Below, piece after piece: positions 5,700 through 34,518 of a stretch of DNA of 35,436 bases (position 1 is its first letter; each line of letters starts with the position of its first letter). Source of the DNA: Thermoplasmatota archaeon (GTDB lineage: Archaea; Thermoplasmatota; E2; JACPAO01; JAHFTW01). Location: assembly GCA_041581335.1 (NCBI GenBank), contig JBFIDG010000002.1:1-35436 (forward strand), given 5' to 3'. Position numbers and translations under genes: made by a program. The notes beneath the pieces were generated by a model that had not been told where the DNA came from, did no database searches, and saw only the letters and a list, made by a program, of their open reading frames with translations.

Positions 5700-5701
5700 G
5701 T

Positions 5702-5881: not shown

Positions 5882-5893
5882 GGGATGGGCCCC

Positions 5894-6466
5894 CTAAGCA
5901 GCGGCCTCGCCTTCGCGAGCCCGCATGCGGTCGTCTTCGATCCACTCGAACTTGCCGAGGCCGGGCTGACGCATGGTCAGTCCGATCTTGGATTCGCGCG
6001 GGGACAGTTCGTTCAGGCTGGCCGTGACGACACGGGCCCGGACGTTGTCGCCGACATCGACGAAGCGGCCGGATTCCTTGCCGACGAGGCGCTCGTTGTG
6101 CACGTCAGCGGTCATGAAGTCGTTCATGACCTGGCTCATGTGGACAAGCGCGTCAAGCGGGCCGATGTGGACGAAGGCACCGAATTCGACGACTTCGGCG
6201 ACAATGCCATCGACGACCTCTTGGCCGTCGGGCTTGAACGCGAGTGCGTCGAAGGTGACCTTCTGGTAGATGGCGCCGTCACCGTGGATGACGTTGCCCT
6301 GCCCATCAGGCTGGACGTTCGTGGTGAGCACGGTGATCCCGTGCCCTTTCGTAAGACGGCCCTCGAACGATTCCTGCACCAGTAGTGCGATGGTCTCGGT
6401 CAGGTCGTCGGTCATGCGTTCCGGCGGGATCCGCACGGTGTCGCTCATTTGGATGATACGGTACAT
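5894..6466 (-). CDS. rpoE: DNA-directed RNA polymerase subunit E' (Rpo7)
   Basis: MYRIIQMSDTVRIPPERM...FKPDGQEVVDGIVAEVVEFGAFVHIGPLDALVHMSQV...VGDNVRARVV. The N-terminal Rpb7-like fold plus an S1 domain is typical of RpoE'. Confidence 0.9.
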   Translation of the reverse strand: MYRIIQMSDTVRIPPERMTDDLTETIALLVQESFEGRLTKGHGITVLTTNVQPDGQGNVIHGDGAIYQKVTFDALAFKPDGQEVVDGIVAEVVEFGAFVHIGPLDALVHMSQVMNDFMTADVHNERLVGKESGRFVDVGDNVRARVVTASLNELSPRESKIGLTMRQPGLGKFEWIEDDRMRAREGEAAA

Positions 6467-6529
6467 CGCTTCCGCTCCCTCAGCAGTTCCGTGCCACAGG
6501 CGCCGCGTTAAAGGTGTTTGGGCTTGTCA

Positions 6530-8263: not shown

Positions 8264-8288
8264 ATACCGCCAGTTGGAGAAGGAAGGC

Positions 8289-8303
8289 AAAAGGGTTGTG
8301 GAC
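8289..8303 (-). promoter_or_regulatory. promoter-like box GTCCACAACCCTTTT (sense strand), with TTTTG at -29..-25 of ATG 8263
   Basis: The same CCACAA-N3/4-TTWWG arrangement occurs at the same distance upstream of the genes starting at 9490 and 11433. The spacing fits an archaeal BRE/TATA for a leaderless mRNA. Confidence 0.45.
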
Positions 8304-8332
8304 TCGTCGGGCAAGCCCAAGGGCCTGCTAGA

Positions 8333-17670: not shown

Positions 17671-19965
17671 GTGGGCCTGACGGACCTCGGCATCGAAGCC
17701 CCCGTGGCCCGCGTATTGGAGGCCCAGGGCATCACCGCCCTGTACCCGCCCCAGGAGGCCGCATGGGCCGCCCTCAAGGACGGCAGCAACGTGGTCGTCA
17801 GCATCCCGACGGCCAGCGGCAAGAGCCTGATCGCATACCTCGCGATCCTGCACCGTTTCCTGGCCACCGGCAAGAAGAGCCTCTTCATCGTGCCCCTGCG
17901 CGCCCTGGCATCGGAGAAGTTCGAAGAACTGCAGGCGTTCAAGGGACTGGGACCCCGCGTCGCCATCGCCACGGGGGACCTGGACGAGAAGGACCCCAAG
18001 CTGGGCACGGCCGACATCATCGTCTGCACCAGTGAGAAGGCGGACAGCCTGCTGCGCCACCGCACCCCATGGGTGGACCAGATCGGCTGCATCGTGACCG
18101 ACGAGATGCACCTCATCCACGACCCCGGCCGCGGACCCACCCTCGAAGTGCTGCTGAGCCGCTTCCGCGCGCTGCTGCCGGAGGCGCAGATCGTCGGCCT
18201 GAGTGCCACCATCAAGAACGCCAACGAACTCGCCGAATGGCTCGACGCCAAACTCATCCTGAGCGAATGGCGCCCCGTAGACCTGCGCGTCGGCACTTAC
18301 CTCCCCAACAATCTCTCCTTCCTTGGGCAGGAGCCCCGCATGCTGGACGGCGCAGGCGACCCCGTGGCCGCCCTCGTCGATGACGCCTTGGCGGCCGGCG
18401 GGCAATGCCTGGTGTTCGTCAGCACCCGCCGGTCGGCGGAAGCCCAAGCGCAGAAGCTCGGTGGGGTCGTCCGCGAACGCCTCAGCTCCGAGCATCTTGC
18501 GCAGCTCGAGGCGGCCGTCTTGGAGATCGAGGGTGGCGAAGACCCGAGCCCCACCGCCAAGAAGCTCGCCAAGTTGTGCAAGGCCGGCGTCGCGTACCAC
18601 ACGGCCGGCCTGGACAACAAACAGCGGCGCTTCGTGGAGCAACAGTTCCGCGCCGGCCTGCTGAAGGTCCTCTGCGCGACGCCGACCCTGGCCGCTGGCG
18701 TCAACACCCCCGCCCGCCGCGTCATCATCCGGGACATGTCGCGATTCCAGATGGGTTCCGGCAACCAGCCCTTGCCCGTCATGGAGGTCAAGCAGATGAT
18801 GGGACGCGCCGGACGGCCCCGCTACGACCCTTACGGCGAAGCGGTGCTGCTTGCGAAGAACGAGGACATGAAGGAGATCCTCGAAGAGGAATACCTGCGC
18901 GGAGAACCGGAGCCGGTGACCAGCAAACTGGCCGCCGACGCCGCGCTGCGCATCCACACCCTGGCGAGCATCGCCGGAGACTATTGCCACAGCGCCGCGT
19001 CGCTGGAGAAGTTCCTTTCACACACCTTCTGGGCCCAGCAAGCGGAGTCGTGGATCATCCGTGACCGCCTGGAAGACACGCTGTGGTTCCTTGAAGAGAA
19101 CGGCTTCGTGGAGATGGACGGAGGCAATGTCAAGGCGACGTTGTTCGGGAAACGCACCAGCGACCTGTACATCGACCCCCTGTCGGCGCTGCGCATGCGC
19201 CAGGCCCTGGAATCCACGCTGGACGTCCCCGGCGACTTCGGCGCCCTGCACGTCATCGCCGGCTGCCCCGACCTGTACCCGCTGTACTTGCGGCAATCCG
19301 ATGGCTGGGTCCAAGAGACCTACTACGAACACTTCCCGCAACTCCTGATCCAAGAAGAGGACCTGGAGGACGCTTTCAGCCACGTCAAGACCGCGTGCCT
19401 GCTGCGGGACTGGATGGAAGAACGCCCCCAACAAGAGGTCGAAGAGCGCTTCAGCATCGGCCCTGGCGACATCCGCATGCGCATCGACTCCGCAGGCTGG
19501 ATGCTGCACGCGTTCCGCGAACTGGCCCGCGCCCTGCGCCCCGACTGGCAACGCCCCATCGGGGACCTGATCATCCGGCTCGAGAACGGCGTCAGGGCCG
19601 AACTCCTGCCCCTGATCCGCCTCAAAGGCGTCGGCCGAATCCGTGCCCGCACCTTGTTCACCGCCGGCTTCCACACGCCGGCCGCACTGAAGACCGCCCC
19701 CGTGGACCGCATCGCCAAGCTCCCTGGTTTCGGCGAAGTGCTGGCCCGTGAGCTCATCAAACAGGTCGGTGGAGACCCTGGGCCAGAGCCGGCCAAACCG
19801 GCCAAGCCGAAGCCGAAGGCTGCGCCCAAGGACGATGCCTCCGCCCCAGAACCTGCTGGGAGACCCAAGCAGGCCCCCAAGGCGGCCACCCCCGATCCGA
19901 CGCCGCCGGCGGACGAGACACCAAAGGGCCAACAAGGACTGGGGCAATGGGGGATGCAACCATGA
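17671..19965 (+). CDS. hel308: Hel308 / Ski2-like DNA helicase
   Basis: Helicase motifs are PTASGKS, DEMH, SAT, FVSTRR, HTAGL and QMMGRAGR. These are followed by the winged-helix, ratchet and HhH domains typical of archaeal Hel308. The last 65 aa or so form a P/A/K-rich tail. GTG start. Confidence 0.92.
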   Translation: MGLTDLGIEAPVARVLEAQGITALYPPQEAAWAALKDGSNVVVSIPTASGKSLIAYLAILHRFLATGKKSLFIVPLRALASEKFEELQAFKGLGPRVAIATGDLDEKDPKLGTADIIVCTSEKADSLLRHRTPWVDQIGCIVTDEMHLIHDPGRGPTLEVLLSRFRALLPEAQIVGLSATIKNANELAEWLDAKLILSEWRPVDLRVGTYLPNNLSFLGQEPRMLDGAGDPVAALVDDALAAGGQCLVFVSTRRSAEAQAQKLGGVVRERLSSEHLAQLEAAVLEIEGGEDPSPTAKKLAKLCKAGVAYHTAGLDNKQRRFVEQQFRAGLLKVLCATPTLAAGVNTPARRVIIRDMSRFQMGSGNQPLPVMEVKQMMGRAGRPRYDPYGEAVLLAKNEDMKEILEEEYLRGEPEPVTSKLAADAALRIHTLASIAGDYCHSAASLEKFLSHTFWAQQAESWIIRDRLEDTLWFLEENGFVEMDGGNVKATLFGKRTSDLYIDPLSALRMRQALESTLDVPGDFGALHVIAGCPDLYPLYLRQSDGWVQETYYEHFPQLLIQEEDLEDAFSHVKTACLLRDWMEERPQQEVEERFSIGPGDIRMRIDSAGWMLHAFRELARALRPDWQRPIGDLIIRLENGVRAELLPLIRLKGVGRIRARTLFTAGFHTPAALKTAPVDRIAKLPGFGEVLARELIKQVGGDPGPEPAKPAKPKPKAAPKDDASAPEPAGRPKQAPKAATPDPTPPADETPKGQQGLGQWGMQP

Positions 19966-20477
19966 TCGATGATGCCGAACTCCAGGTCGCCGCCGTGGGC
20001 GTCCGGGGACCCCTCGTCCTTGACGATGTGCTGTTCATGGCCAAGCGTGCACAGAAGTTCGGACCGCTCCAGGTCGTCCGCGACGACCGCGTCGTCGGCT
20101 TCGACCACATCCGTAGCGCTGCACTCCATGCCACCCGGGCCCTGGCCGAAGGCCGCGCCAAGGCAGACCGGCCCGAAGTGGAGTTCACGCGTTTCCTCGC
20201 GGCCCGCCGCACCATCCGCGAAGCCATCGACCACATCGGGCTCCCCGACGGTGCCCGCACAGGCATCGTCGTCGCCATGGGCGAGATGCGCCACGCCGGC
20301 ATCGAATACTTCTGCGAACAACTCGGCCTCGACATCGACGACGACCTCATCGTGGCCGACGACGCCCACCTCGATGCCTTCGGCATCACGCAGACCCAAC
20401 GGGACGCCACCGACCCGACACTGCATGCTGACCTCGCGCTCGAGGCGGTCGCCGGCGTCGACCTGATGCGTTCTTAG
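19947..20477 (+). CDS. cgi121: KEOPS complex subunit Cgi121-like protein
   Basis: About 170 aa. LQVVRDDRVVGFDHIRSAALHATRALAEGRAKADRPEVEFTRFLAARRTIREAIDHIGLPDG...IVVAM parallels archaeal Cgi121 (for example the ...ATKKHVLHAINQA...EILVRASGQRQIHEAIKIIG..DG pattern). The start overlaps the hel308 stop. ATG 19962 is an alternative. Confidence 0.65.
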   Translation: MGDATMIDDAELQVAAVGVRGPLVLDDVLFMAKRAQKFGPLQVVRDDRVVGFDHIRSAALHATRALAEGRAKADRPEVEFTRFLAARRTIREAIDHIGLPDGARTGIVVAMGEMRHAGIEYFCEQLGLDIDDDLIVADDAHLDAFGITQTQRDATDPTLHADLALEAVAGVDLMRS

Positions 20478-20687
20478 GCGCCGCCGTCCAAGGTACTTGA
20501 AGACCGCTCGGACAAGGGTTGGTGTCGCGCCCTTCACAGTTCTTCAGGCCAGCCTCCCGACGCGTCCACGGGCCAGCCCGCAGAGCGTCCGTTCTATTCG
20601 CGAGGTGAAAGGAAATCATCCTCGCGCCAAGGAGATGCAAGGGGCGTTTGGCAGAGCATTTTTAGTGGCCGCCAAATCGGCGGCGCC

Positions 20688-21350
20688 ATGCGCATGCTCC
20701 CATTCCTCGCCATCATTGGCCTCCTGTTGGCCGGTTGCACCCAGCCCACCGCCACCGACGTCGTCGAAGGCGACGCACCGCAAGACCCGGCAACGGGGGG
20801 CGATGCGGCCGCCGGTGGATCCGGCGATGCGACGGAACCTGGGAGCAACGGGTCCGGGCCCGGCAGCGACGCGGCGCCCCAGGGCAATGATACGGCCAGC
20901 AGCAATGACACAGCTGCGAGCACGCCCAACTGGGCGCCGACGCTCTACCTGCACAAGGACGGCGACCGGCAATGGATGGACGCAACCGCCGACCCCAAGG
21001 GCAGCGTCTCGGGCAGCAACACGCCCACGAGTGAAAACACGTACCACCGCTTCAACTTGGAACCCAGCATCGAAGCCGACCAGACCTTCGGCGACGCCGC
21101 CCTCATCAAGATCCACTGGTCTGTGCAACAGGGCGTCATCGCAGACATGAAACCGGCAGCCCGCCTCATCATCGCCGGCACCATCTACGAAGCCATCGAA
21201 GGCGAGAACGGCCTCGAAGCGCCCCTACCCGACGGCGTCAATGCCGGCCACGAGATCGCCCTCGAGGTCTGCATCTGCGGCTCCGGGTCCGCGACCTCCA
21301 ACTACGTCATCGATTTGGACGAGCGGACGTGGGTCAAGTTCCAGGCCTGA
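20688..21350 (+). CDS. exported lipoprotein with a low-complexity linker; function unknown
   Basis: The lipobox is MRMLPFLAIIGLLLAGC, followed by a G/D/A/S-rich linker and a globular domain of about 135 aa beginning PTLYLH. An ATTTTTA box at 20658-20664 lies 24-30 nt upstream of the ATG, consistent with a leaderless-type promoter. Confidence 0.7.
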   Translation: MRMLPFLAIIGLLLAGCTQPTATDVVEGDAPQDPATGGDAAAGGSGDATEPGSNGSGPGSDAAPQGNDTASSNDTAASTPNWAPTLYLHKDGDRQWMDATADPKGSVSGSNTPTSENTYHRFNLEPSIEADQTFGDAALIKIHWSVQQGVIADMKPAARLIIAGTIYEAIEGENGLEAPLPDGVNAGHEIALEVCICGSGSATSNYVIDLDERTWVKFQA

Positions 21351-21492
21351 GCCCCGACCCGGGGCCCCAGATCGCCGCCGCAGCTTACCAAAAACTGGGC
21401 GCGCGTCGTTGCGCTCATATAGGGGACCTGTGTCGGCGAGTTTGTCCCCGGCGTGCTGGGGACGCGCGCTGGCCTCGGCCGGCTCGCCATAG

Positions 21493-21566
21493 GGTCCCGT
21501 GGGGTAGCTTGGATATCCTGGAAGCTTGCGGAGCTTTTGACACGTGTTCGAATCGCGTCGGGACCG
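21493..21566 (+). tRNA. tRNA-Arg (anticodon GCG)
   Basis: GGTCCCGTGGGGTAGCTTGGATATCCTGGAAGCTTGCGGAGCTTTTGACACGTGTTCGAATCGCGTCGGGACCG. The acceptor is GGTCCCG/CGGGACC, the anticodon arm is GAAGC-TTGCGGA-GCTTT and the T arm is ACGTG-TTCGAAT-CGCGT. The D stem is weak at 3 bp. Confidence 0.85.
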
Positions 21567-21567
21567 C
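21545..21567 (+). repeat. attL-like core: the last 22 nt of tRNA-Arg plus 1 nt
   Basis: TGTTCGAATCGCGTCGGGACCGC is identical to 28383-28405. Confidence 0.9.
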
Positions 21568-21615
21568 TTCCTCTCTCTCCTGTTGGCTCGCCAATAGACC
21601 TCTTCCCAGCCAATC

Positions 21616-21870
21616 CTATGAAACAGCCCGCGAAAACGCCGGCATTTCATATTTGTCAAAACCCTCCCCCAAACGGCCCACCAGGCTACGGAGGTAATTG
21701 TACGTCGTCTCGAGCTTCCCTATCCACGAAGCATTAAGCGCTTCGTCAACCGACTCCGCATCTGGTTGCACGTGGCCGAACAGCGTGGCATGCTTAAGCC
21801 AGGCCAGCCAACCGCCAGCCAGTGGGGACGCTGGGCCGCCCTTAATGAGCGCTGGCCCGAGTTGGGTCAC
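21616..21870 (-). CDS. hypothetical protein (island, left end)
   Basis: 84-aa ORF with a GTG start and reasonable codon pattern. It overlaps the 5' part of track ORF 21766..22104, so only one of the two may be real. No integrase motifs. Confidence 0.3.
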   Translation of the reverse strand: MTQLGPALIKGGPASPLAGGWLAWLKHATLFGHVQPDAESVDEALNASWIGKLETTYNYLRSLVGRLGEGFDKYEMPAFSRAVS

Positions 21871-21879
21871 GCACTTCGC

Positions 21880-22104
21880 ATGAATCCGTCGCTAAGTTCC
21901 AGATTGGAACGCACATCCGGTGACCAAAAAGCATTCGAGGCAGAACTGCGCGCCATCGCCTCCGTCGTCGAGGGGACTGAGGACGCCCGCACGTTTTGGA
22001 TGGAAGAACCAATCATCAGCCCGATTCTGGAAAACATGGTACACTTTGCATCGCTGCCCCGAGCCGCACCCACCCCCGAAACGAAAGCCGCCAAGCCTGC
22101 GTGA
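21880..22104 (+). CDS. hypothetical protein (island)
   Basis: The internal ATG of track ORF 21766..22104 gives a 74-aa product, MNPSLSSRLERTSGDQKAFEAELRAIASVVEG... . This start avoids overlap with the minus-strand ORF. Confidence 0.3.
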   Translation: MNPSLSSRLERTSGDQKAFEAELRAIASVVEGTEDARTFWMEEPIISPILENMVHFASLPRAAPTPETKAAKPA

Positions 22105-23002
22105 GGCCCAGGGGCATACATCCACGAGCCCGCTTGGTCAATTCGAATTCGATTCAGGCGATGGGGTGCTGCGGGCGCCCGCACGAGCCGGCTCTAGCAG
22201 GCGGCAAGCGCCCCGACGCGATAGAACATTGCTAGGTTTAACAAAAAATTAACCACCCTATCGCACGTGTCTCCGGTAGAGCGGCGCGAGCCGACGGGCC
22301 AAAACTGGCCCCAAGGAACGCATCCCGAGCCTCCCCCGCAGCCTAGGCTGACCCCCAGACATACCCAAAACGGCGCCAGACTAGTCTACCGTCGATTAGG
22401 CGTCTCCTAGCCTTAAGATTTGGATTAAGCAGTATCCGTTGTGCCCATCCACACCACGATGCAACCGGCAGCGATGTCGTACCACGGTCCCGCAGCGGAC
22501 AAAACGCCCAACGCCACGCCCAACCCAGAACCGTCCACATCACCACCAACTAGCAGCGCACATTCAATAATTCGCACAGGCCACCGACGTCATTGGGGGT
22601 TGAGTCGAAGCAAGAGCCACGCCAGCAAACCCACCCCGGAGGCCTCCCATGCGTGAAGCAAGATTCGACATCTTCGCCGCAGGCCCACTACGAATGCCCG
22701 ACGGAACCATCCAAACCAACAAGCACCCGACCACACCCACCAAGCTCACAACACCCGGCGCGGAACCCCCTGCAACCAGCTAAGCCCCCTAGTGGTTCAT
22801 GACGGCTCCGACAAAAAGGCCACACGAGAATCGCGAAATTCGCCCCAATCTCGCTTCACCTACTGGCGCTAACGCCCCGGCGCTCGCGCCCAAGCCGATC
22901 CACAAGAGCCCCGCGCCCATTGGCCGCGACGAATCAATCTCACGAACTTAACGCACACACTTAACCCTCAGCCGCCGAATTCCAACCGCAAGGTCGGGTG
23001 TC

Positions 23003-23566
23003 GTGCGAGCCAGCGGAGACGAGACACGGGAGTTGCTGCTGCACATCATCCAGAACAAACCCGGCATCACCAAGAGCAGGCTCCAACAGGAAGCAAGCCT
23101 GGCATGGGGCACAATCAGCTACCACGTCCGAATCCTACAACGCGATGGCCGAATCGACGCATTTCGCCTCGGCAGAACCCTACGACTCGCACCGCGTCGC
23201 TTCAGCAAAGAACTCGAACAAGAAGCCGCCCTAATGGCCCCACTGGCACGCGACATCATCCAAGCCATATCCACCGCCGGCACCCGCGGCACAGCCGATC
23301 TTGCCCGCGCCACTGGCCAATCCGCCCGCCGAGTAGACAACCAACTCGGATACCTCATGGACGCTGGACTCATCGACCGCACCGACGCGTACCACCCACG
23401 CTACGAGCTAAACTCGAAGGGCATGGCAACCGCCCAGAAACTCGGCGCCAACCACCCACCACCCAACAGTGACCAATCGGCCACCCAACAAAATCCAGCC
23501 GTCAACGAACCAAACGGAGCGCACAATCATGAAAACAACCATCATTCTCCTAGCCACCATCCTTAG
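23003..23566 (+). CDS. double winged-helix-turn-helix DNA-binding protein with a His/Asn/Pro-rich tail (island)
   Basis: Two wHTH units: RELLLHIIQNKPGITKSRLQQEASLAWGTISYHVRILQRDGRIDAFRLGR and ARDIIQAISTAGTRGTADLARATGQSARRVDNQLGYLMDAGLIDR. GTG start. Confidence 0.7.
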   Translation: MRASGDETRELLLHIIQNKPGITKSRLQQEASLAWGTISYHVRILQRDGRIDAFRLGRTLRLAPRRFSKELEQEAALMAPLARDIIQAISTAGTRGTADLARATGQSARRVDNQLGYLMDAGLIDRTDAYHPRYELNSKGMATAQKLGANHPPPNSDQSATQQNPAVNEPNGAHNHENNHHSPSHHP

Positions 23567-23924
23567 CCTAACCGCCACCGCCACCCACGGCCAAGCCACT
23601 GGCGGCGCAGTGCTCCAGAGTGCAGTCGACGGCGACACCCTCGACCTTTCGTGGGCCGTGCTCGGCGCCATCGACGAACTGACTCTCCACTGGATCAATA
23701 GCACCGGCACAGAAGGCAGCCTCAGCGTAACGGCCACCGATGGAGGCATCTCCCTCGCAAACCCCGCCGACGCCACCCTCTACATCCTGGAAATCCAGGC
23801 AAACGGTGAAACATCTTTCAGCAACCCGGCAAGCAACTGGCCCCGCTGCGACCCAGAAGGCTGGCTAGCCATCGTCAACCAACCGCCCTTCGTACACGTC
23901 TACTACGACTGCATCCGACCATGA
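23529..23924 (+). CDS. small secreted protein (island)
   Basis: The internal ATG of track ORF 23469..23924 gives the signal peptide MKTTIILLATILSLTATATHG. The start lies inside the 3' tail of the wHTH gene. The stop overlaps the next start (ATGA at 23921-23924). Confidence 0.6.
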   Translation: MKTTIILLATILSLTATATHGQATGGAVLQSAVDGDTLDLSWAVLGAIDELTLHWINSTGTEGSLSVTATDGGISLANPADATLYILEIQANGETSFSNPASNWPRCDPEGWLAIVNQPPFVHVYYDCIRP

Positions 23925-25330
23925 CGCACGCCCGTTTCCACTGCACAACAGCCGCTATTATCATGCTACTAGTCGCACCCGCGGCGGGTGCCGTTAGCCT
24001 CACGGCGGAGTCAGTGGCCATCACAGGCGAAACACTCGACCTCCAAGCGAGCTACGTCCAAATTGACGCCGCCCAAGGACTCGAACCTCCCCGGGCGGAC
24101 GGTATCATCATCGACGGAACCGACATCAGCGTCGAAGCCTGGTACCAAGACTCCGGCGGCACCACCGTCCCAATTTTCCCCGAAACAACGGTCTCCACGC
24201 TTGCAGAAGGCCAAGTGACCGCCGTCGGTGCAGCAATTCAACCAACATTCCAACTCAACGTACTAGCCCCTGACGGGGCCACGATATCAGGTCTCTCAGA
24301 CCTGACCCTCCAGCCCCACTCGCAAAGCCAAGGCGGGTTCCCAGAGTACGTCTGGCAAACCGGAAACGAGTTCAACGTGACCCTCGCCAAGGACCCTCGC
24401 GCCGCCGTACACGCCGCCACGACCATCTCGTTCGACGCCCCATTCACCATGGCATTCTGGAGCTGGAACTTCACAGTCAATGGAGATGCAGAAGCGGCCT
24501 GGAGCGGACAGAGACCACACGGCGAACCCATTGCCGGAAGGCACCCCCAAGGGCTGGACAAACAGCTGCTCGTATTCCATGTCCGCGAAGGCACCGCCAC
24601 CATGCAACTCGATCCACAACACATCGAGCAGCTGTTCATTCGAACCCAGGAATTCCAACTCCAGGGCCAAGTCAACATCAAGCAATCAACGGTAACAGGA
24701 ACACCAGACGGGAGCACGAATCAGAGCTTCGAGGGCAACCTGACAATCAAAACGAGCCGAATCGACAACCACACGCTAAACGCTATCATCGCACAACAGG
24801 AAAGGCCCGGGCTATCCGGCACAGAGCCAATCGAGGCCCCAACAGACCCCATCCGAACCCCCGAAACCCACGACAACGGCAACGCCATGGCTGCACCAAT
24901 CAGCCCTGAATCAAGTACAGCCATACAGGCGCTGATGATTGCAGGACTCGCCATCCTGGCCCTAGGGTTGGTCGCATACGGAACGCGATGGAAACGCCTC
25001 GTAGCCCATTTCTCAGCCCAAGACTACCGCTACGTCGCCCGGCACGCAGCCACATTCCACGCAAGCTCACGCCACGCAGGAGACGCCCAAGTGATGACCA
25101 TGGTGGCAGCAATCAAGCTCGGTCACTACGAAATCGTACGAGACAACTTGGGCCGACTCCCCGACATCGACGCCGGCGCGCGAGCCATTCTCGAGGGGCA
25201 CGCACTCATCGGCCTCGGCCTGATCGACGACGCTCAAAAACTGCTCGACGAATTGCGCTCGACATATGGAACCCGTGAATCCTTGACCCACGCATTGGAG
25301 AGCTCCGACCCCTCTGCAGCGTACGCCTAA
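23921..25330 (+). CDS. type I membrane protein: signal peptide, ectodomain of about 310 aa, one TM span and a helical-repeat (TPR-like) cytoplasmic tail (island)
   Basis: The N-terminal hydrophobic segment is AAIIMLLVAPAAGAVS and the TM span is AIQALMIAGLAILALGLVAYG. The tail includes YRYVARHAATFHAS...AAIKLGHYEIVRDNLGRL...GHALIGLGLIDDAQKLLDEL. Confidence 0.65.
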   Translation: MTHARFHCTTAAIIMLLVAPAAGAVSLTAESVAITGETLDLQASYVQIDAAQGLEPPRADGIIIDGTDISVEAWYQDSGGTTVPIFPETTVSTLAEGQVTAVGAAIQPTFQLNVLAPDGATISGLSDLTLQPHSQSQGGFPEYVWQTGNEFNVTLAKDPRAAVHAATTISFDAPFTMAFWSWNFTVNGDAEAAWSGQRPHGEPIAGRHPQGLDKQLLVFHVREGTATMQLDPQHIEQLFIRTQEFQLQGQVNIKQSTVTGTPDGSTNQSFEGNLTIKTSRIDNHTLNAIIAQQERPGLSGTEPIEAPTDPIRTPETHDNGNAMAAPISPESSTAIQALMIAGLAILALGLVAYGTRWKRLVAHFSAQDYRYVARHAATFHASSRHAGDAQVMTMVAAIKLGHYEIVRDNLGRLPDIDAGARAILEGHALIGLGLIDDAQKLLDELRSTYGTRESLTHALESSDPSAAYA

Positions 25331-25798
25331 AACCCGCCGCGCCCCACCGCTACCCCCAGCCACGGTGCCCCGGCGCACCACCCCTCAGCATCAAACTTTT
25401 GCCGAGCACCGCTCGGCTTAGCAACCCACACCCAGCCCTGTATCCTACGTTATTAGTCGGCAACTAATACGAGTCAGGAACTTGTGTGATCCAGCTGCCC
25501 CCGCGTTGGAAATCGACCTCCACGACGCCATGGCTTTGCCCATGTCTAACGACACCCCACGCCAGCAATCCCATCACACCCCCACAAACCCGGGCATTTA
25601 CCCCGAAAATCCGGCATAGGATTACGGCATGCGCAGGCCGTGCACCAGCCAAATCCGGGGTCAGGGGGACGACCACCAACAAGGACGCGATGCCGCGACC
25701 AGCGACAAGGGGCCACCAATCGTACGAATCTGGCGACGAAGCTTAAGTCACGCCCGTGTTCCCTTCATCTGCCGACCTTCGTGTCGGAATGTGATAAT

Positions 25799-26116
25799 AT
25801 GAAACTGTACCTAATTACGGGAATCTTGCTGCTGTCCGCCCTCGCCGTCGTGCCAAGCGCATCGGCAGCCCAGTGCGCCAGCGCAACCTCCTGCGCGTAC
25901 GACGTCCGGGACCACTGCGGCGGCGGCGCTCTCCTCTCGCAGAGTTGCAGTAACGCCATCTCCAACCTGCCCGAAGGCGCGCAATACCAGGCCCACAACA
26001 CCGCTCAGAACCTGGCTTGCGTGGTCCAGGAGATCCTTAGCCCGGGAAGCGTCTGCCTTGTGCCAGAACCATGCAGGCCTGGCCAAGCGTGCGAAACCAT
26101 CCGCGTGGGACTGTAG
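25799..26116 (+). CDS. small cysteine-rich secreted protein (island)
   Basis: The internal ATG of track ORF 25640..26116 gives the signal peptide MKLYLITGILLLSALAVVPSASA. The mature part of about 80 aa has 8 Cys. Confidence 0.55.
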   Translation: MKLYLITGILLLSALAVVPSASAAQCASATSCAYDVRDHCGGGALLSQSCSNAISNLPEGAQYQAHNTAQNLACVVQEILSPGSVCLVPEPCRPGQACETIRVGL

Positions 26117-26183
26117 AAATACGGCAACCCCCTTCCTTTTCCCCTCCTCCCCACGCGCTTGCGCACCACCGCTCGGTGTATCC

Positions 26184-28205
26184 ATGAAAGTACCGAAATC
26201 GGCCATCCTCGCCGCCATTTTGATTGCCCCACTGGCCATGGGCCAAGCCCCGACGGACGCATGGCTACCACTCGACACAGATCCATCCGGCGACGTCACG
26301 ACGCCGGCGGGCAATCGCCCGGAATTCCAGGCTACCGACCTCAAGTCAATTCAATATCAAGAAACCCCGGCCGCACTTTGGCTCCAAATCACCACCGCCG
26401 GCTTCCCCCAAACGGCCGGCGTCGAAAGCACCCAAGCCAGCTACACCATCGGCTTCGCCGCAGGCAACCAATCATACCGCCTACTAACAACTCGCACGGT
26501 GCCAATACAAGGCGGCGCCCCCGCATACGACGTGACCTTTGAAGCCTACGATGCCGCGCTCGGAGACTACCGTCGCAAGAGCGCGCCAATCGAATTTCAG
26601 GCAGATGAAACGGGCATCCTGTATTACGGCCTGCCCTGGCAAAACATCACCACGGAGCGCGGCCTCCCCCTGGTGCCGGGCAACCAACTCACGGACATCT
26701 CCATCCGAACAGCCAGCGGATACGACGCAATTATCGCAAGCAGCGCCGGGGCCGCCGGCCCCACCCCCACCGCAATCGCCCAGGACCGCATGCCCGACCA
26801 AGGGGAACTCGCCATCACTCTCCAAAGCATCGGCCGCGCCGCGGAAGGCATCATTGCCACCAGCCCCAACCCACTGCGATCAAGCAACGGCGCCCCCACG
26901 ACTTTCCTATTCCCCCTAGTCCTTTCCAACTTCCAGGGCTCGCAAGCCGTACTGGAACTTCTTGCAACGGATTTACCAAATGGTTGGGAGGCCCACCCCC
27001 TAGCCAACCCCATCATCCTCGAAGACCGGCAAAGCGTCGTCACTAGCATTGCCGTCAGCACCACAGGTCACCACCAACATGGCACCCAGCAAGCATTTGA
27101 AGTGCAAGTGCTGCAAGCGGGCGCGCTGCAAGCCAGCATTGAATACACGGTATACTACACTGAGACGGCGCAACCAAGCGGCCACCATCCGACGCTCTAC
27201 CTATACACCGTCGAACGAAGCCGCGGCAACCCCGTGAGCGACGCCGGCGATACCGTCTCCGAGGAGGTTCAAGGGTTCTACTACAATGACGCGTTCATGA
27301 CAACCGCCATTGATGCGGCCGAGGATGCCCAGGTCCCGGTCACCGCCGGGGCCGTGGGCACTCGACACGGCTGGCAGATTCCTTTGACACCATCATTAGG
27401 CCTAGGCCTCGACTTCACTGACGATGCAAGCGAGCTTGTCCTGCCGCTAGAATTGACTAGGGATGGCTCAATCTCACAAGTCCAGCTCGAGGCCGTCGTT
27501 AGCGTTCAGCGAGCAGACGGCCAGTTGAAGCTGGCCTCAGGAAGTCTAGACGTGGGTACCTTCGCCTCGAGCCAGGAGGTCACGATTCCAATTGCCAGGC
27601 TCCCCGGTGTCGACGTAGTAGCATACCAGCCTGGCCAGAACATGGTGCTTACGGTGTTCGCTGATTTCGTCGATCAACCCAACACCGGCCTAGATCTCAA
27701 CCTCATGCCCGGCGGCCGCATCACGTTGCCGCTCGAAGAGTACCAGGACGTCATCCCGGAAGGTTCGTTGAGTTCGTTGTCGTTGAGCGTGGAGCCGCGG
27801 TTCCAACTCGTCAATCCAGGCAGCCGCGTTAACTATCACATGACGGTGAGCGGCCCTGCCGGAGCTGTCGTGGAACTCGATGGACTAGGAGTCCCCGAGG
27901 GCTGGAGGCTGTCGTTCTCGAAGAATCGCCCGACGCTTACCGAAGGCCCCGTACTCGTTACAGTTCAGCTAGAGGCTCCGATAGGCGCCCGCGATGGCGA
28001 CGGGGCATCGTTCTTTGTGCGGGCGTCCCCCAGTGATGGCTCGGCGGCGACTGCCGCCGGCATTCGGGCGGAGGTTGATTCGAGGGCAGAATTGCCTCAG
28101 ATCGATGCGCTGACTGCGCGGGAGAAACAGAGTAGCAGCGTCGCCGCCGTCGCACTTCTATTGATGCTAGCCACCACCACGTGGACCAGACGGGGCAGAC
28201 AATAG
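26184..28205 (+). CDS. large surface protein: signal peptide, beta-sandwich-like repeats and a C-terminal TM anchor (island)
   Basis: The internal ATG of track ORF 26058..28205 gives the signal peptide MKVPKSAILAAILIAPLAMG. The C-terminal anchor is SSSVAAVALLLMLATTTWTRRGRQ. Segments such as LVNPGSRVNYHMTVSGPAGAVVELDGLGVPEGWRLSFS...LTEGPVLVTVQLEAP resemble CARDB/NEW3-type archaeal surface-protein modules; this is inference. Confidence 0.7.
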   Translation: MKVPKSAILAAILIAPLAMGQAPTDAWLPLDTDPSGDVTTPAGNRPEFQATDLKSIQYQETPAALWLQITTAGFPQTAGVESTQASYTIGFAAGNQSYRLLTTRTVPIQGGAPAYDVTFEAYDAALGDYRRKSAPIEFQADETGILYYGLPWQNITTERGLPLVPGNQLTDISIRTASGYDAIIASSAGAAGPTPTAIAQDRMPDQGELAITLQSIGRAAEGIIATSPNPLRSSNGAPTTFLFPLVLSNFQGSQAVLELLATDLPNGWEAHPLANPIILEDRQSVVTSIAVSTTGHHQHGTQQAFEVQVLQAGALQASIEYTVYYTETAQPSGHHPTLYLYTVERSRGNPVSDAGDTVSEEVQGFYYNDAFMTTAIDAAEDAQVPVTAGAVGTRHGWQIPLTPSLGLGLDFTDDASELVLPLELTRDGSISQVQLEAVVSVQRADGQLKLASGSLDVGTFASSQEVTIPIARLPGVDVVAYQPGQNMVLTVFADFVDQPNTGLDLNLMPGGRITLPLEEYQDVIPEGSLSSLSLSVEPRFQLVNPGSRVNYHMTVSGPAGAVVELDGLGVPEGWRLSFSKNRPTLTEGPVLVTVQLEAPIGARDGDGASFFVRASPSDGSAATAAGIRAEVDSRAELPQIDALTAREKQSSSVAAVALLLMLATTTWTRRGRQ

Positions 28206-28382
28206 GGTCCGACCAGCGGCGTCTGCCACACCCCCCGGGCTAATACGGATACGGAGTGGTGCAAGCACAACAAACCCGCCGCGCCGGACACATTAGTTGG
28301 AAAAACGCCCCCACCCGCCTCTCCTGTTGTCATGAGGTTGCGATTTTGGCCCACCCTAATGCCCGATCCCCTCCTGTTGGCC

Positions 28383-28405
28383 TGTTCGAATCGCGTCGGG
28401 ACCGC
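28383..28405 (+). repeat. attR-like core: displaced original 3' end of tRNA-Arg
   Basis: Identical to 21545-21567 and followed after 3 nt by a T7 run. Confidence 0.9.
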
Positions 28406-28408
28406 CTC

Positions 28409-28415
28409 TTTTTTT
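28409..28415 (+). terminator. oligo-T (T7) tract, the likely original tRNA-Arg terminator
   Basis: TTTTTTT lies directly after the distal tRNA 3'-end copy. Archaeal RNA polymerase terminates at oligo-T. The intact tRNA at 21493..21566 has no such tract. Confidence 0.5.
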
Positions 28416-28526
28416 GTCTCCCTCAGCGGAGGCTCCATCTCGACCCCTTTGTTTCCACTCGAGCGCAAGTACTCCTTGGCGGAATCCGGGGAAGCCGTTA
28501 ACCGAGCGCCCGCCTGTCGGCCTCCT

Positions 28527-28667
28527 ATGAGCGACCGAAGGCTGATCGACAGCTACTGCAACTCTTGTGAAGACGTCGCCAAGCACGTCATCCGTCCGGA
28601 TGACCCGGGCTCCTGCGTCTGCACGGTGTGCCACGCGAGCCAGCAATTGATGGTCCCGATCGGTTAG
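28527..28667 (+). CDS. small zinc-ribbon protein (46 aa)
   Basis: MSDRRLIDSYCNSCEDVAKHVIRPDDPGSCVCTVCHASQQLMVPIG has CxxC...CxCxxC and host-like GC3-rich codons. It is an internal start of track ORF 28332..28667. Confidence 0.4.
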   Translation: MSDRRLIDSYCNSCEDVAKHVIRPDDPGSCVCTVCHASQQLMVPIG

Positions 28668-28786
28668 GACCAGAAATCGAGGTCAAGGTCGCCCTTGGCC
28701 TCTTTCTTGCCCTTCTTCTCCTGGCGCTTGGCCGTCAGGTCCTCGACCTCGTCGAGCAGGCTCTTGCGCTTCTTCTCCTCGGGCAT
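28664..28786 (-). CDS. small highly charged protein (40 aa)
   Basis: Below the track cutoff. MPEEKKRKSLLDEVEDLTAKRQEKKGKKEAKGDLDLDFWS has strongly host-like codon usage. Its stop overlaps the stop of the convergent zinc-ribbon ORF. Confidence 0.3.
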   Translation of the reverse strand: MPEEKKRKSLLDEVEDLTAKRQEKKGKKEAKGDLDLDFWS

Positions 28787-29316
28787 AGGGGCTTGCAGGC
28801 TGTCCGCTCTGATTAGCCCTGCCGTCGCCGGCCCGGGGGCCTAGTCGCCTTGCAGTTTGCGTTTGGCCAGTGCGGCCAAACGGCGCCCGGCGGGACTCTG
28901 GCGCAGATTGGCTCCCGGGGGACTGTCTGGCATCTTCTGCCGCTTCGCGGCCATCTGGATGCGTTTCTTGCTCGCATCCTGGTTGCGGCGGACCGTCTCG
29001 CTCACGGCGCCTCCGGCGGTACGGTCGTCGGGTCCATGGGCGGACCACGCGGGCCTCCCAGAAAGGGCCATCGGCGCCGTGGCGACGGTGTGGGCCGGCG
29101 GGAGGCGACCCCAGACGATGCCTGCGCCAAGCCGGCCGCCGGCATGGCGGCCGGGCTCCGGCCTCGGCGCCCAGCCACGCGCACGGTCGGCGTGGCGGCG
29201 GTCGCGAGGGGCCGACACACCGATGTCCAGACCCATAGCGCAAGGCGCCGACGGCCTGCCCGCGGGGCCCGCCCCGACGCGAAACGGCTAATGCCAGCAC
29301 ACCACACCTCCAAGCT

Positions 29317-29949
29317 ATGCCCGCGGTGGTCTTCGACTTCGACGGCGTCATCTGCAACAGCATGGCCCAGCACGCGGCCGCGTACCGGGACCTGCTGAAG
29401 CCATTCGGCATCCCGGTCACTGATCGCCAGATCTACCTGCTCGAGGGCGCCCGCAGCGAGTCCATCATCCAGGACCTCGCCGTGGCCGCGGGCGTCGCTT
29501 TGCAGGACGTGGCCGGGCTGGCGAACGAGAAGCAACGCTTGTTCCGGGAAGCAGGCGCGCCGTCGCTGTACCCGGGCGCCGCATCCCTTGTCGGTTCGGT
29601 GCAGGACCGGACGGCCACGGCGGTCGTCACGGGCACCCGGCTGGAGAACCTGGCGCGCTTGATCCCGGACCTGATGGAGCGCTTCGAGGCCATCATGAGC
29701 CAGGAGACCTACCAGATGGACAAGCCACATCCGGAGCCCTATGCCCGCGCCGCGCAGGCGTTGCGCGTAGACCCTGAGGACTGCATCGCCGTGGAGAACG
29801 CCGTGCGCGGCGTGCAGAGCGCCAAGGCGGCTGGCTACGGCGAAGTGATCGCCATCACCACGACGCTGGCCAGCAACGACCTTGGGGCAGCCGACCTCGT
29901 CGTCCCAGACCACCCGACCTTGCACGCTGCCCTGATGGACAGGCTCTAA
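29317..29949 (+). CDS. HAD-superfamily hydrolase (beta-phosphoglucomutase / phosphatase-like)
   Basis: Motif I is VVFDFDGVI. A cap region follows, then VVTGT (motif II), K (DKPHPEPY) and a motif III-like VENAVRGVQSAKAAG. Confidence 0.85.
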   Translation: MPAVVFDFDGVICNSMAQHAAAYRDLLKPFGIPVTDRQIYLLEGARSESIIQDLAVAAGVALQDVAGLANEKQRLFREAGAPSLYPGAASLVGSVQDRTATAVVTGTRLENLARLIPDLMERFEAIMSQETYQMDKPHPEPYARAAQALRVDPEDCIAVENAVRGVQSAKAAGYGEVIAITTTLASNDLGAADLVVPDHPTLHAALMDRL

Positions 29950-29972
29950 GTCCGGCACACCCATCTGGGGAT

Positions 29973-30452
29973 GTGGCACGGAAGCCGGTCATCGGCGTCA
30001 TGGGCGGACACGCAGTGTCGGGCGACACAGAGATCCTAGCGGAAGAACTAGGGGCCGCCATCGCCAAAGAAGGCTGGATCCTACTCAATGGCGGCCGCGA
30101 CGAAGGCGTCATGCGCGCCTCCGCCAAAGGCGCCCACGAGGCCGGAGGATTCGTCGTGGGCCTCCACCCAGGGATGCGGGATGATGGCGACGTCGCGCCA
30201 CACCTGGATCTGTGCATCTTCACCGGCATCGGGTTCGCCCGCAACATGAGCAACATCCTGACGAGCGACGTCGTCGTGGCGTTGCCTGGCCGCTACGGCA
30301 CACTCAACGAGGTCGCCTACTCGAAGACCTTCGGCAAACCCACCATCCTGTTCGGCTTCCTCGACGAGATGTGGTTCGGCGACGGCGTGACCCGCGTCAA
30401 CACGGTGGATGAATGCATCCAGGCCATCCGGCGGCTCCTGAGGTCAAGCTGA
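29973..30452 (+). CDS. TIGR00725 / LOG-like Rossmann-fold protein
   Basis: IGVMGG........A.ELG..IA..G..LLNGG..GVM.A...GA...GG..VG and ALPG.YGT..E are the family blocks. GTG start. Confidence 0.75.
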   Translation: MARKPVIGVMGGHAVSGDTEILAEELGAAIAKEGWILLNGGRDEGVMRASAKGAHEAGGFVVGLHPGMRDDGDVAPHLDLCIFTGIGFARNMSNILTSDVVVALPGRYGTLNEVAYSKTFGKPTILFGFLDEMWFGDGVTRVNTVDECIQAIRRLLRSS

Positions 30453-30486
30453 GTCGAGCAGACCGCCGGTAACGCGCACCGGATGG

Positions 30487-31581
30487 GTGGCGCCCGCTTT
30501 TCAACCCGGCCGGTTTCGCCGCGCCGTGGCCCTCCGCACGCCGCTATACGCGACCCACGAAGCCGCCGGCGCGACGTTCGTCCCCTTTGCCGGATATGAC
30601 ATGCCGGTGCACTACGGCAGCATCAAGGACGAACACGCCGCCGTCCGCCAGGGCGCCGGCCTCTTTGACGTCAGCCACATGTCGAACCTGTGGGTCGAAG
30701 GCCCCGGCGCTGCGGCCGCCATCGGCGCCGTCACCACGCGCCCCGCGGCCGCCCTGCCACTTGGCAAGGGCCACTACACGTGCATCATGAACGAGGATGG
30801 CACCATCCTCGACGACACCTTCGTCTTCCGCCTGGAAGAGGAACGCTTCCTGGTCATCCCCAACGCTGGCATGAACCGCATCGCGCAGGAGCACATCGCG
30901 GCGCACGCCCAAGACGAGACCGTCGTCTCCGACGAGACCAGCGACTGGGCGATCCTTGCGCTACAAGGCCCCAAGGCACGGGGCATCCTGGCCAGAGCCA
31001 GCACCGATGAGGCCCCCAAGTTCCATCGCATCGCGGTCATGGAGATCGCCCGCGCCGGCTGCCTGGTGAGCGGCACCGGATACACGGGCGAGAAGGGCGT
31101 CGAGATCTACGTTCCAGCCGTCCAGGCGGTCCAGGTCTGGGAGCACCTCATGCACATCGGCGCCGAAGACGGCCTGCGGCCCATCGGCCTGGGCGCCAGG
31201 GATACGCTCCGCCTCGAGAAAGGCTACTGCCTCGCCGGCAACGAGTTCGCCGGAGGCCGCAGCCCCCTCGAAGCCAACCTCGCGTTCTGCATCGACTGGG
31301 ACCATGAGTTCCTGGGCAGGGCCGCCCTGGCCGAACAGAAAGAGACCGACCACGCCCTGTTGTGGGGCCTCGTGCAGGAGAAAGGCATCCCGCGCCATGG
31401 CTACCGCGTGCTCCAAGGCGACGACGACATCGGCGAGATCACCAGCGGCACCCAGAGCCCGACCCTCGGACAAGGCATCGCACTTGCCTACCTGAACGGC
31501 GTGGATGCAGGCGACTTGGTCGACGTGGACATCCGCGGCAGGCGCCAGCCCGCCAAGGTCGTCTCGCCGCCCTTCTGCTGA
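30487..31581 (+). CDS. gcvT: glycine cleavage system T protein (aminomethyltransferase)
   Basis: LRTPLYATHEAAGATFVPFAGYDMPVHY, GLFDVSHM, SGTGYTGEKGVEIY, GLGARDTLRLE and GEITSGTQSPTLG are blocks seen in GcvT proteins. GTG 30526 is an alternative start. Confidence 0.9.
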   Translation: MAPAFQPGRFRRAVALRTPLYATHEAAGATFVPFAGYDMPVHYGSIKDEHAAVRQGAGLFDVSHMSNLWVEGPGAAAAIGAVTTRPAAALPLGKGHYTCIMNEDGTILDDTFVFRLEEERFLVIPNAGMNRIAQEHIAAHAQDETVVSDETSDWAILALQGPKARGILARASTDEAPKFHRIAVMEIARAGCLVSGTGYTGEKGVEIYVPAVQAVQVWEHLMHIGAEDGLRPIGLGARDTLRLEKGYCLAGNEFAGGRSPLEANLAFCIDWDHEFLGRAALAEQKETDHALLWGLVQEKGIPRHGYRVLQGDDDIGEITSGTQSPTLGQGIALAYLNGVDAGDLVDVDIRGRRQPAKVVSPPFC

Positions 31582-31659
31582 AGGCAGCCGCTGCCACATA
31601 TCAGCGCTGCGGGCTTCCGAACGTCTTATACAACCAGAGCCCGAGTCGAGGCCTCAACC

Positions 31660-33006
31660 ATGTACATCATCGTCGGTGGTGCAGGTGAAGTCGGCTTCCA
31701 CGTCGCGCGCGCCCTGCGGGACGAAGGCCATGATGTGGCCGTGGTCGAGGCCGACGCACGGCGGCTTGAGCGCTTGCAGGAACTGGATGTCCTCGCGGTG
31801 CACGGCAACATCGCCAACAAGCGCATCCTCGAAGAGGAGGCCAATGTCCGCGAAGCGGACCTCTTGATCGCTTGCACCGGCGACGACGCGGTGAACATGA
31901 TCGCCGCCGCATTGGCCAAGACGTACGGCGTGCGGACCATCGCACGCATCAACGACAACGAATACCTCAACGTGCCGTACTCCGACGAATACCAGGCCAT
32001 GGGGATCGACATGGCCGTCAGCCCGGAGATGGTCGCGGCGATCCGCATCCGGCGCCTGCTCAAACAGCCCGAGCTCCTCAACGCGGACGTGTTCGCCCAG
32101 GGCAAGGTCCACATCGCCGAAGGCCGGGTCACGAGCGAGGCGTTCGTCGCAGGCAAACAGGTCCAAGAGGTAGAGCCCCCGGCCGGCTTCAACCTCTTCG
32201 CCATCTACCGCGGCGACGATGTCATCATCCCCCGTGGCACGACCCGATTCCAGGTCCACGACCGCCTCCTCATGGCGTTGCTGAGCCCCGAGGTCCTGAA
32301 GGACGTCGAGCCATACATCGGCCGCTTGAAGACCGTCGCTCAGAACAAACCCGTACGCCGTGTCATGATCGCCGGCGCCACGCGCATCGGCGTGCACTTG
32401 GCACGCCTGCTGGAACAGACGAAGCATGACGTCGTGCTGGTCGATCCCGATGCCGAGCGCTGCCGCAGAGCCGGCGAGCGCCTCACCAAGACCCTCATCG
32501 TGCACGGCGACGTGACGGACCGCACCTTGCTCATCCAAGAGAACGTCGACACCTTCGATGCGTTCGTCGCGGCCACACGCGTCGAGGAATACAATGTGCT
32601 GGCGGCGCTGATGGCCAAGCAGCTCGGCGTGCCTATGACGGTCGCCGTCATCAACCAGCCAGAGCTGAAGCAGTTCCTGGAGACCCTCGACATCGACCTC
32701 GCCGTGGCGCCCCGCCTCAGCACCGTCGGCGCCATCCTGAAGCATGTCCACCCGCAGAACGAAGAACTGCAATTGCAGAACCTCGGCGAAGAACGCATCA
32801 TGATCATCCGGGTCCCCGAGAACGCCGGCATCGTCGGCAAGACGATCCAACGGGCCGGCCTGCCACCCCATTCCATCATCGCGGCCATCGTCCGCGGCGA
32901 GGATGTCATCCTGCCTCGCGGCAGGGACACGATCCAAGGCCACGACCTCATCGTCGCCTACGCGCTCACCGAGTCGGTGGAGCGTCTGGAGCGTCTCTTC
33001 CGATGA
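31660..33006 (+). CDS. trkA: Trk potassium uptake system NAD-binding subunit TrkA
   Basis: Two RCK units: MYIIVGGAGEVG (GxGxxG) and RVMIAGATRIG. Each is followed by a TrkA-C domain. Confidence 0.92.
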   Translation: MYIIVGGAGEVGFHVARALRDEGHDVAVVEADARRLERLQELDVLAVHGNIANKRILEEEANVREADLLIACTGDDAVNMIAAALAKTYGVRTIARINDNEYLNVPYSDEYQAMGIDMAVSPEMVAAIRIRRLLKQPELLNADVFAQGKVHIAEGRVTSEAFVAGKQVQEVEPPAGFNLFAIYRGDDVIIPRGTTRFQVHDRLLMALLSPEVLKDVEPYIGRLKTVAQNKPVRRVMIAGATRIGVHLARLLEQTKHDVVLVDPDAERCRRAGERLTKTLIVHGDVTDRTLLIQENVDTFDAFVAATRVEEYNVLAALMAKQLGVPMTVAVINQPELKQFLETLDIDLAVAPRLSTVGAILKHVHPQNEELQLQNLGEERIMIIRVPENAGIVGKTIQRAGLPPHSIIAAIVRGEDVILPRGRDTIQGHDLIVAYALTESVERLERLFR

Positions 33007-34508: not shown

Positions 34509-34518
34509 GGCAACGGCC

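Follow-up and report, generated by a model that had tools for sequence, protein, structure and literature searches.

The stretch of DNA analysed here, contig JBFIDG010000002.1 of a Thermoplasmatota archaeon (assembly GCA_041581335.1), is 35,436 nt in length and is referred to as the window; the analysis comprised the window together with short related contigs, the loci on which are labelled L003, L005 and so forth. A segment of 6.8 kb of foreign DNA was confirmed within it, inserted with exact borders in the 3' end of a tRNA-Arg(GCG) gene. A previous reading made from the letters alone (the sequence-only reading) had described this segment as an island lacking an integrase, delimited by a perfect 23-bp direct repeat of the tRNA end and with a run of seven T residues after the distal copy only, and these features were all recovered. 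The tRNA gene, which is intact and serves as the integration target in the host, lies on the plus strand at 21493-21567 (ARAGORN; Rfam RF00005, 49.6 bits in a local scan) and exhibits 93-99% identity to the tRNA-Arg at nine other loci in metagenome-assembled genomes (MAGs) of Thermoplasmatota. The repeated 23-mer, TGTTCGAATCGCGTCGGGACCGC, consists of the tRNA's final 22 nt and one further nucleotide and occurs exactly twice in the window, both times on the plus strand: as the attL core at 21545-21567 and as the attR core at 28383-28405. Allowing up to three mismatches revealed no further match in the window, and the repeat was found in none of 100 shuffled sequences. The distal copy is followed by CTCTTTTTTT, as at the unoccupied sites described below, and by the T7 run (TTTTTTT, plus strand, 28409-28415), which comparison with those sites identifies as the native tRNA terminator. 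With one att copy counted the insert measures 6,838 bp (21568-28405). The rebuilt circular form reads CCCCTCCTGTTGGCC-TGTTCGAATCGCGTCGGGACCGC-TTCCTCTCTCTCCTGTTGGC at attP, while the strain's own empty attB would read left flank, tRNA, CTCTTTTTTTG and right flank. The whole-window Rfam scan at the gathering threshold passed over the tRNA at 21493-21567, presumably owing to its speed filters; fast Rfam filters can lose genuine tRNAs.

In a scan of 185,579 species genomes (one genome per species) the 23-mer was located at only nine loci, with one copy at each, and every one of them is a tRNA-Arg(GCG) gene in a MAG of Thermoplasmatota. It occurred once in the JGI metagenomes, on contig L017, and not at all in IMG/VR. 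It is therefore not a dispersed repeat; had it been one, the proposal would have been refuted by the sequence-only reading's own criterion. Empty sites were identified in at least six related Thermoplasmatota MAGs (L005, L001 with L002, L007, L008, L006 and L009) and on L017. In these the tRNA-Arg runs straight into CTCTTTTT, the same sequence that follows attR in the window. The L005 sequence aligns to the window with approximately 80-83% identity over 18091-21570 and then directly over 28383-28785 and 29275-33392; L001 with L002, L007 and L008 show the same direct junction between tRNA and right flank, and L006 and L009 are empty as judged by gene order (tRNA, zinc-ribbon ORF, small acidic protein, HAD hydrolase). 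The zinc-ribbon open reading frame (ORF; 46 aa, plus strand, 28527-28667) is the first host gene beyond the island and adjoins the 3' side of the tRNA-Arg in L006 and in the L005 and L007 alignments. The distal repeat is therefore the tRNA's original 3' end, now displaced, as had been predicted, since at the empty sites the tRNA stands directly before the T-run and the right-flank genes. The same species yielded no empty site, and the relatives that did have flanks with approximately 67-84% nucleotide identity. The occupied site was recovered from a second, independent assembly (L012; GCA_041619475.1, contig JBFKDU010000029), which is 99.76% identical to the window over 14 kb, and short Logan contigs from three sequencing runs (SRR29257391, SRR29257392 and SRR29257424) also have the island.

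The composition of the island and its codon usage are foreign to the host. The G+C content is approximately 0.60 between the repeats and 0.67 outside, the GC skew falls to -0.28 and the AT skew rises to +0.40. At third codon positions the G+C content (GC3) of the island ORFs is 0.65-0.72 (0.68) compared with 0.78-0.90 (0.87) for flanking genes, and codons ending in A account for 22% and 7%, respectively. The abrupt change reported from inspection of the letters is thus borne out by G+C content, both skews, GC3 and A-ending codons alike, and the base counts then given for the line 22681-22740 (27 C, 9 G, 21 A and 3 T) are exact. All credible island ORFs are on the plus strand, also as had been described.

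Immediately inside attL is a pyrimidine-rich remnant of the left arm (plus strand, 21568-21612), which is missing from the empty sites and includes one copy of the motif CTCCTGTTG at 21577-21585. It is followed by the 5'-truncated gene of a KAP-family P-loop NTPase (plus strand, 21613-22104; phmmer and tblastn), of which the C-terminal ~150 codons are left and whose frame is free of stop codons from 21622 to 22104. That the ORF abutting attL is such a gene had been overlooked by the sequence-only reading. A phmmer search of 1.84 billion representative proteins yielded 388 matches to the stump at E ≤ 1e-3, the best non-self match being 1e-18, and all 388 align through the last ~130-150 residues of longer proteins; these are mostly of 200-1000 aa and many are fragments themselves. 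The full-length relatives (600-1000 aa) belong to PF07693 (KAP_NTPase) and are matched, in addition, by PADLOC models of defence ATPases (PifA, QatA and PDC-S20). When 149 KAP proteins were compared with the window by tblastn, homology was confined to 21613-22101 in a single frame, beginning approximately 46-65 bp from the attL core, and the N-terminal 450-750 residues of the KAP proteins had no counterpart anywhere in the window. The stump is homologous to the C-terminal region of these NTPases and, unlike them, possesses no P-loop domain, only the last ~150 residues. As that domain is missing, no function of the PifA, QatA or PDC-S20 type can be assigned to the stump. A defence system was considered and rejected, PADLOC having matched only the full-length relatives of the stump and generic winged helix-turn-helix (wHTH) models. 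The KAP homologues are stand-alone genes in unrelated chromosomes and their context is uninformative.

At the opposite end of the island only 177 bp lie between the last ORF, encoding a protein of 673 aa, and attR, so that the missing part of the KAP gene does not reside there; with no room for it, a deletion is indicated rather than a gene split by attP. Judged from these alignments, the truncated KAP gene probably marks a deletion beside attL. Elements that target tRNA genes often keep their integrase gene beside the intact tRNA, and a deletion at this position is the best available explanation for the missing integrase. The other common archaeal layout places the integrase beside the distal repeat (Makarova et al., PMC4158269); neither an integrase remnant nor room for one was found at that end of the island.

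No integrase, Rep, primase, capsid or packaging gene was matched among the island ORFs in Pfam, PHROGs, NCBIfam or PADLOC, which agrees with the earlier statement that recombinase, Rep and capsid genes are lacking. Six-frame Pfam scans of the non-coding stretches 21568-23010 and 25331-25798 revealed no recombinase, nor did a Pfam scan of the three longest ORFs shadowing the genes on the minus strand; a single sub-threshold transglutaminase-like match in these scans was taken as noise. An integrase split in the manner of Sulfolobus spindle-shaped viruses (SSV) was rejected, the rebuilt circular junction containing no stop-free frame across att of more than 118 codons and the 118-codon frame showing no similarity to integrases; the sequence-only reading had likewise seen no such gene over either junction. 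The exhaustive protein search covered the left ORF only, the 131-aa, 105-aa and wHTH proteins described below having been searched at lower sensitivity.

Downstream of the KAP stump is a stretch of approximately 900 bp rich in C and A (22105-23002) without a credible ORF. Neither six-frame Pfam matches, an Rfam family nor tandem repeats were detected in it, and a non-coding RNA or iterons were rejected as candidates on the latter two grounds; sites resembling terminators are no commoner there than in shuffled sequence. At 22212-22222, 650 bp inside the island, 11 nt of the att core are repeated perfectly in inverted orientation (CCCGACGCGAT), which may be due to chance or represent a secondary recombinase site. 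An isolated AT-rich and partly palindromic stretch (GGTTTAACAAAAAATTAACC) occupies 22236-22256 in this otherwise GC-rich gap and could be a promoter, a terminator or an unwinding element. A second intergenic stretch, at 25331-25798, includes a 7-bp indel (25695-25701) that distinguishes the two assemblies. The right arm (plus strand, 28206-28382) carries two direct copies of CTCCTGTTG, at 28321-28329 and 28371-28379, located by motif scan. Four copies of this motif are present in the window where 0.35 would be expected. In the circular form three of them, all direct, surround att at distances of no more than approximately 90 bp from it (28321, 28371 and 21577; 50 and 44 bp apart). On the strength of motif counts and spacing, these could be candidate arm sites of the recombinase or sites for an accessory protein.

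The remaining part of the island is taken up by five intact plus-strand ORFs, whose boundaries were reproduced by independent gene calls on L012. The first encodes a double winged-helix DNA-binding protein of 187 aa with a low-complexity tail (23003-23566; HTH_24, 2.5e-10; HTH_HVO_0163_N; HVO_A0114). It shares 50% identity with its syntenic counterpart in L018, and a word-index search returned no close relatives. The second (23529-23924; L012 gene call) is a small protein of 131 aa, read as secreted from its hydrophobic N-terminus and 53% identical to the syntenic L018 ORF. The third is a single-pass membrane protein of 469 aa (23921-25330; hydropathy) that shares 41% identity over 94% of its length with the homologue P0005. 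It consists of a hydrophobic N-terminal segment, a beta-rich outer part, a transmembrane helix at residues ~331-356 and a conserved cytoplasmic tail of helical repeats; an AlphaFold2 model (predicted confidence, pLDDT, of 43) was confident in the C-terminal helical domain only. A Cys-rich protein of 105 aa (25799-26116; L012 gene call, hydropathy), likewise read as secreted on account of a hydrophobic N-terminus, precedes the all-beta, multi-domain protein of 673 aa (26184-28205; homologues, AlphaFold2).

The 673-aa protein, which has hydrophobic segments at both termini, is read as a surface protein with a putative signal peptide and a C-terminal transmembrane anchor; these ends were judged from the sequence, a sliding hydropathy scan having flagged no segment in the protein. 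Just two distant homologues were found (24-27% identity), both in archaeal chromosomal contexts adjoining ribosomal-protein and ScpAB genes, and one of them gives weak matches to 'choice-of-anchor T' and 'putative S-layer protein'. Its AlphaFold2 model consists of beta-sandwich domains predicted with low confidence (pLDDT 52). No known family was matched by the 131-aa, 469-aa, 105-aa and 673-aa proteins, four of the five intact ORFs. Foldseek searches with the models of the two large proteins returned only generic multi-immunoglobulin matches (TM-scores 0.07-0.16), and the structures support no more than putative all-beta ectodomains and a helical cytoplasmic tail.

The genes for the wHTH, 131-aa and 469-aa proteins are syntenic in L018, L023 and L024 (50, 53 and 41% identity, respectively), where across several samples they occupy the same ordinary chromosomal neighbourhood with host-typical G+C content and without att repeats. 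This three-gene module spans 23003-25330 of the window, 6790-9120 of L018 and 1063-3393 of L023. Elsewhere its membrane protein is of approximately 465 aa, the cytoplasmic helical tail is strongly conserved and the two genes other than the regulator are without a Pfam family; the module may be a transmembrane signalling unit. Upstream of it in L018, at 4642-5634, is an ORF of 364 aa comprising six tandem repeats of ~141 nt (47 aa) with 60-98% identity. To judge from the predicted proteins and the setting of their relatives, the cargo of the island would be a cell-envelope-type module with its own regulator, derived from another archaeon, and not a recognisable virion module. Outside the island, the left host flank encodes an archaeal Hel308-type helicase, in agreement with the Thermoplasmatota host that the nine 23-mer loci indicate. 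At 6530-9490 and 13295-14956 of the same flank are genes for a multicopper oxidase, a PKD-domain protein and a pyrroloquinoline quinone (PQQ) beta-propeller fused to a plastocyanin-like copper domain, an extracellular redox set that bears no relation to the island.

Taken together, the island is probably the decayed remnant of a larger element, which lost its recombination module and the 5' portion of the KAP gene by deletion and so became an immobile islet. The donor would have had a lower G+C content and was probably another lineage of Thermoplasmatota. The element would have entered the 3' end of the tRNA-Arg(GCG) gene by site-specific recombination over the 23-bp core, presumably catalysed by a tyrosine recombinase, with duplication of the core into attL and attR. 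A deletion beside attL, either after integration or already in the donor, would then have taken everything between the ~45-bp left arm and the middle of the KAP gene, a stretch that most likely held the integrase and any replication genes. What is left would be unable to move alone: the 3' stump of an NTPase gene, approximately 0.9 kb of C/A-rich non-coding DNA and an intact cassette of envelope type. The host would now keep, and presumably express, the wHTH protein and four secreted or membrane-anchored proteins as cargo. Excision by a cognate integrase supplied in trans is still conceivable, given that neither the two att cores nor the arm repeats beside them have been lost. Of the three options that the sequence-only reading had left standing, a decayed provirus or plasmid, an element mobilised in trans or a minimal element of a kind not yet described, the first is favoured by the KAP stump, and the last gained no support. 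The lack of an integrase is here best read as damage rather than as a new mechanism.

Several observations weigh against this account. The searches returned no intact relative in which an integrase, a complete KAP gene and the cassette occur together, and the deletion is for that reason deduced from one truncated gene. The KAP gene may have been truncated beforehand, within a mobile unit that was not autonomous. No stop codon interrupts the stump and all five genes of the cassette are complete, which makes the element either young or subject to selection, and it is not visibly rotting. An integrase may be encoded elsewhere in the genome, the 35-kb window being the part examined. The distribution of single nucleotide polymorphisms (SNPs) between the window and L012 also fits recent site-specific spread of an element that was already truncated. 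Over the island (21568-28382) the two assemblies differ by 2 SNPs and one 7-bp indel in 6.8 kb, and over the adjoining flank (28406-35427) by 24 SNPs in 7.0 kb, the first of which is 37 bp past attR (Fisher's exact test, p = 1e-5; p = 4e-4 without a cluster at the contig end). This approximately 10-fold contrast fits recent acquisition in one young sub-lineage, or recent site-specific spread, and can equally arise where the consensus flanks of MAGs blend strains with and without the island.

The same figures bear on the foremost alternative, that the 6.8-kb structure is a non-autonomous mobile unit, of the kind of a cis-mobilisable element (CIME) or satellite, moved in trans by an integrase encoded by a helper or by the host. 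This is considered unlikely. In its favour, both att cores are free of mismatches, CTCCTGTTG is present around att in three direct copies where 0.35 would be expected in the whole window, and the change from 2 island SNPs to 24 in the flank falls right at attR. The assemblies of L012 and of L001/L002 break at this tRNA, a hint that populations are mixed, some members having the island and others lacking it. In L003 (JANQNI010000164.1, region 5380-6737) a tyrosine recombinase of 381 aa (PF00589, E = 1e-16) is encoded 67 bp upstream of the orthologous tRNA-Arg(GCG), among ORFans typical of mobile elements of 418 aa and 468 aa (the latter with the Walker A motif GPPGMAKS); L003 and L004 have only the right flank in common. 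This element makes the tRNA-Arg an apparent target or hotspot of integrase-carrying elements within the phylum and indicates that potential helpers are available.

Against mobilisation in trans, the L003 element is on the 5' side of the tRNA, an unusual geometry, and has nothing in common with the island; comparison of its integrase and neighbours with the island by tblastn gave only noise (E ≥ 0.03). Neither a circular junction nor an attP, a second site or a second host was detected elsewhere, scans of viral, genome and metagenome collections for TGTTCGAATCGCGTCGGGACCGC having returned tRNA-Arg loci only. The island is restricted to a single lineage represented by two assemblies that are 99.8% identical, the stump of the border gene resembles accidental damage and not design, and strain-mixing in the MAG flanks would suffice to explain the SNP contrast. 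A more specific version of the proposal, to which still less credence is given, is that the island represents the first archaeal counterpart of a CIME: a helper integrase for tRNA-Arg(GCG) would still move it from strain to strain of Thermoplasmatota, with the CTCCTGTTG copies as arm sites and the envelope cassette as selectable cargo.

Decay into a remnant, the preferred explanation, is in keeping with other tRNA loci of the group. Short stretches of the 3' end of a tRNA, or of the sequence downstream, are present twice, only 56-106 bp apart, at 137-310 of L017, at 9292-9433 of L018 (tRNA-Lys) and at 6654-6737 of L003, where a 14-bp copy of the tRNA 3' end is situated 56 bp downstream of the tRNA. 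From their arrangement these look like the scars of insertions that have been almost fully deleted, and decay at tRNA 3' ends would be common in this group.

An origin from a virus or plasmid was rejected, searches of PHROGs and IMG/VR and those by blastn and tblastn all being empty. Comparison of the whole island with phages and plasmids (blastn; INPHARED and PLSDB) yielded nothing, and the two large proteins gave zero tblastn matches to 50,697 phage and archaeal virus records. No relative was recovered by pattern searches of IMG/VR using single proteins or patterns derived from alignments, PHROGs had no match for four cassette proteins, and Foldseek searches of BFVD returned only generic beta-sandwich matches (TM-scores 0.07-0.15). 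It is improbable on these results, and already weakly refuted, that an enveloped archaeal virus of pleolipovirus-like character left the island as a remnant and that the cassette encodes the membrane and spike proteins of its virion. Such an origin would suit the two large proteins with hydrophobic N-termini and C-terminal transmembrane anchors, the two small proteins with hydrophobic N-termini, the co-directional arrangement of the cassette behind a wHTH regulator and the size of approximately 7 kb, which is within the range of pleolipovirus genomes. It is opposed, beyond the failed viral searches, by the stable chromosomal neighbourhoods in which all detectable homologues occur. The NTPase and Rep of the pleolipovirus core are not present, and neither that core nor viral relatives were recovered from PHROG, INPHARED, IMG/VR or BFVD.

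An autonomous minimal element of a new kind, with a recombinase concealed among the unrecognised ORFs, is more improbable still. Four of the five intact ORFs are without a known family and the exhaustive profile search was confined to the left ORF, which leaves some latitude for it; yet all four of those proteins begin with a putative signal peptide and would be extracytoplasmic or membrane-anchored, the fifth is the 187-aa double wHTH protein without a catalytic domain, the relatives of three of the ORFs are chromosomal and without att sites, and the truncated border gene marks the element as damaged. That there was no insertion, the segment being ancestral and precisely deleted from other lineages, is effectively refuted and scarcely credible: it could draw on the lack of a same-species empty site and the divergence of the empty-site flanks, whereas the junction of the tRNA with the native T-run is exactly alike in at least six species, a duplicated tRNA 3' end delimits the segment, and the segment's codon usage is foreign.

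Among described systems the island corresponds most closely to the CIME state known from the integrative and conjugative elements (ICEs) as well as integrative and mobilisable elements (IMEs) of Streptococcus, in this case at a tRNA 3' end. A CIME is defined as having kept attL and attR and lost its integration genes (PMC5704250). Both cores of the island are perfect, with arm motifs on both sides; integration and transfer genes are not present and a truncated KAP gene abuts attL, while an intact ancestor was not found. Bacteria are the hosts of CIMEs, whose ancestors are conjugative elements and for which movement through accretion with an arriving ICE or IME has been demonstrated. The island differs in its archaeal host, and neither mobilisation nor a tandem partner was seen. 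With genomic islands at tRNA genes it shares the repeat, an empty site and the deviant composition, but not an element-encoded integrase. Archaeal integrated elements with an unsplit tyrosine integrase, among them the cryptic integrated elements of Thaumarchaeota, in which the integrase is conserved by definition and att is mostly shorter than 26 bp (PMC6563490), are similar in their small size, tRNA site, short direct repeats (23 bp in the island) and complement of ORFans with a wHTH protein; the island, in contrast, has no integrase and does have a truncated border gene. Integration of the SSV type (class I) splits a 'suicidal' integrase (PMC7253208, PMC4158269). Like SSV-type elements after integration, the island is archaeal, occupies a tRNA 3' end and is unable to excise alone; unlike them, it carries no int(N) and int(C) fragments reading across attL and attR.

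The island thus appears to be a decayed integrated tRNA element of a known category, in a phylum in which few such elements have been described. Mobile elements of uncultured Thermoplasmatota are barely described, and the island provides a cleanly delimited case that is of use for the annotation of MAGs and as a site at which trans-mobilisation can be tested. It suggests that Thermoplasmatota archaea acquire modules of envelope proteins through tRNA-targeted integration, and the truncated KAP gene, together with the short tRNA-end scars at other loci, suggests that insertions of this type decay quickly.

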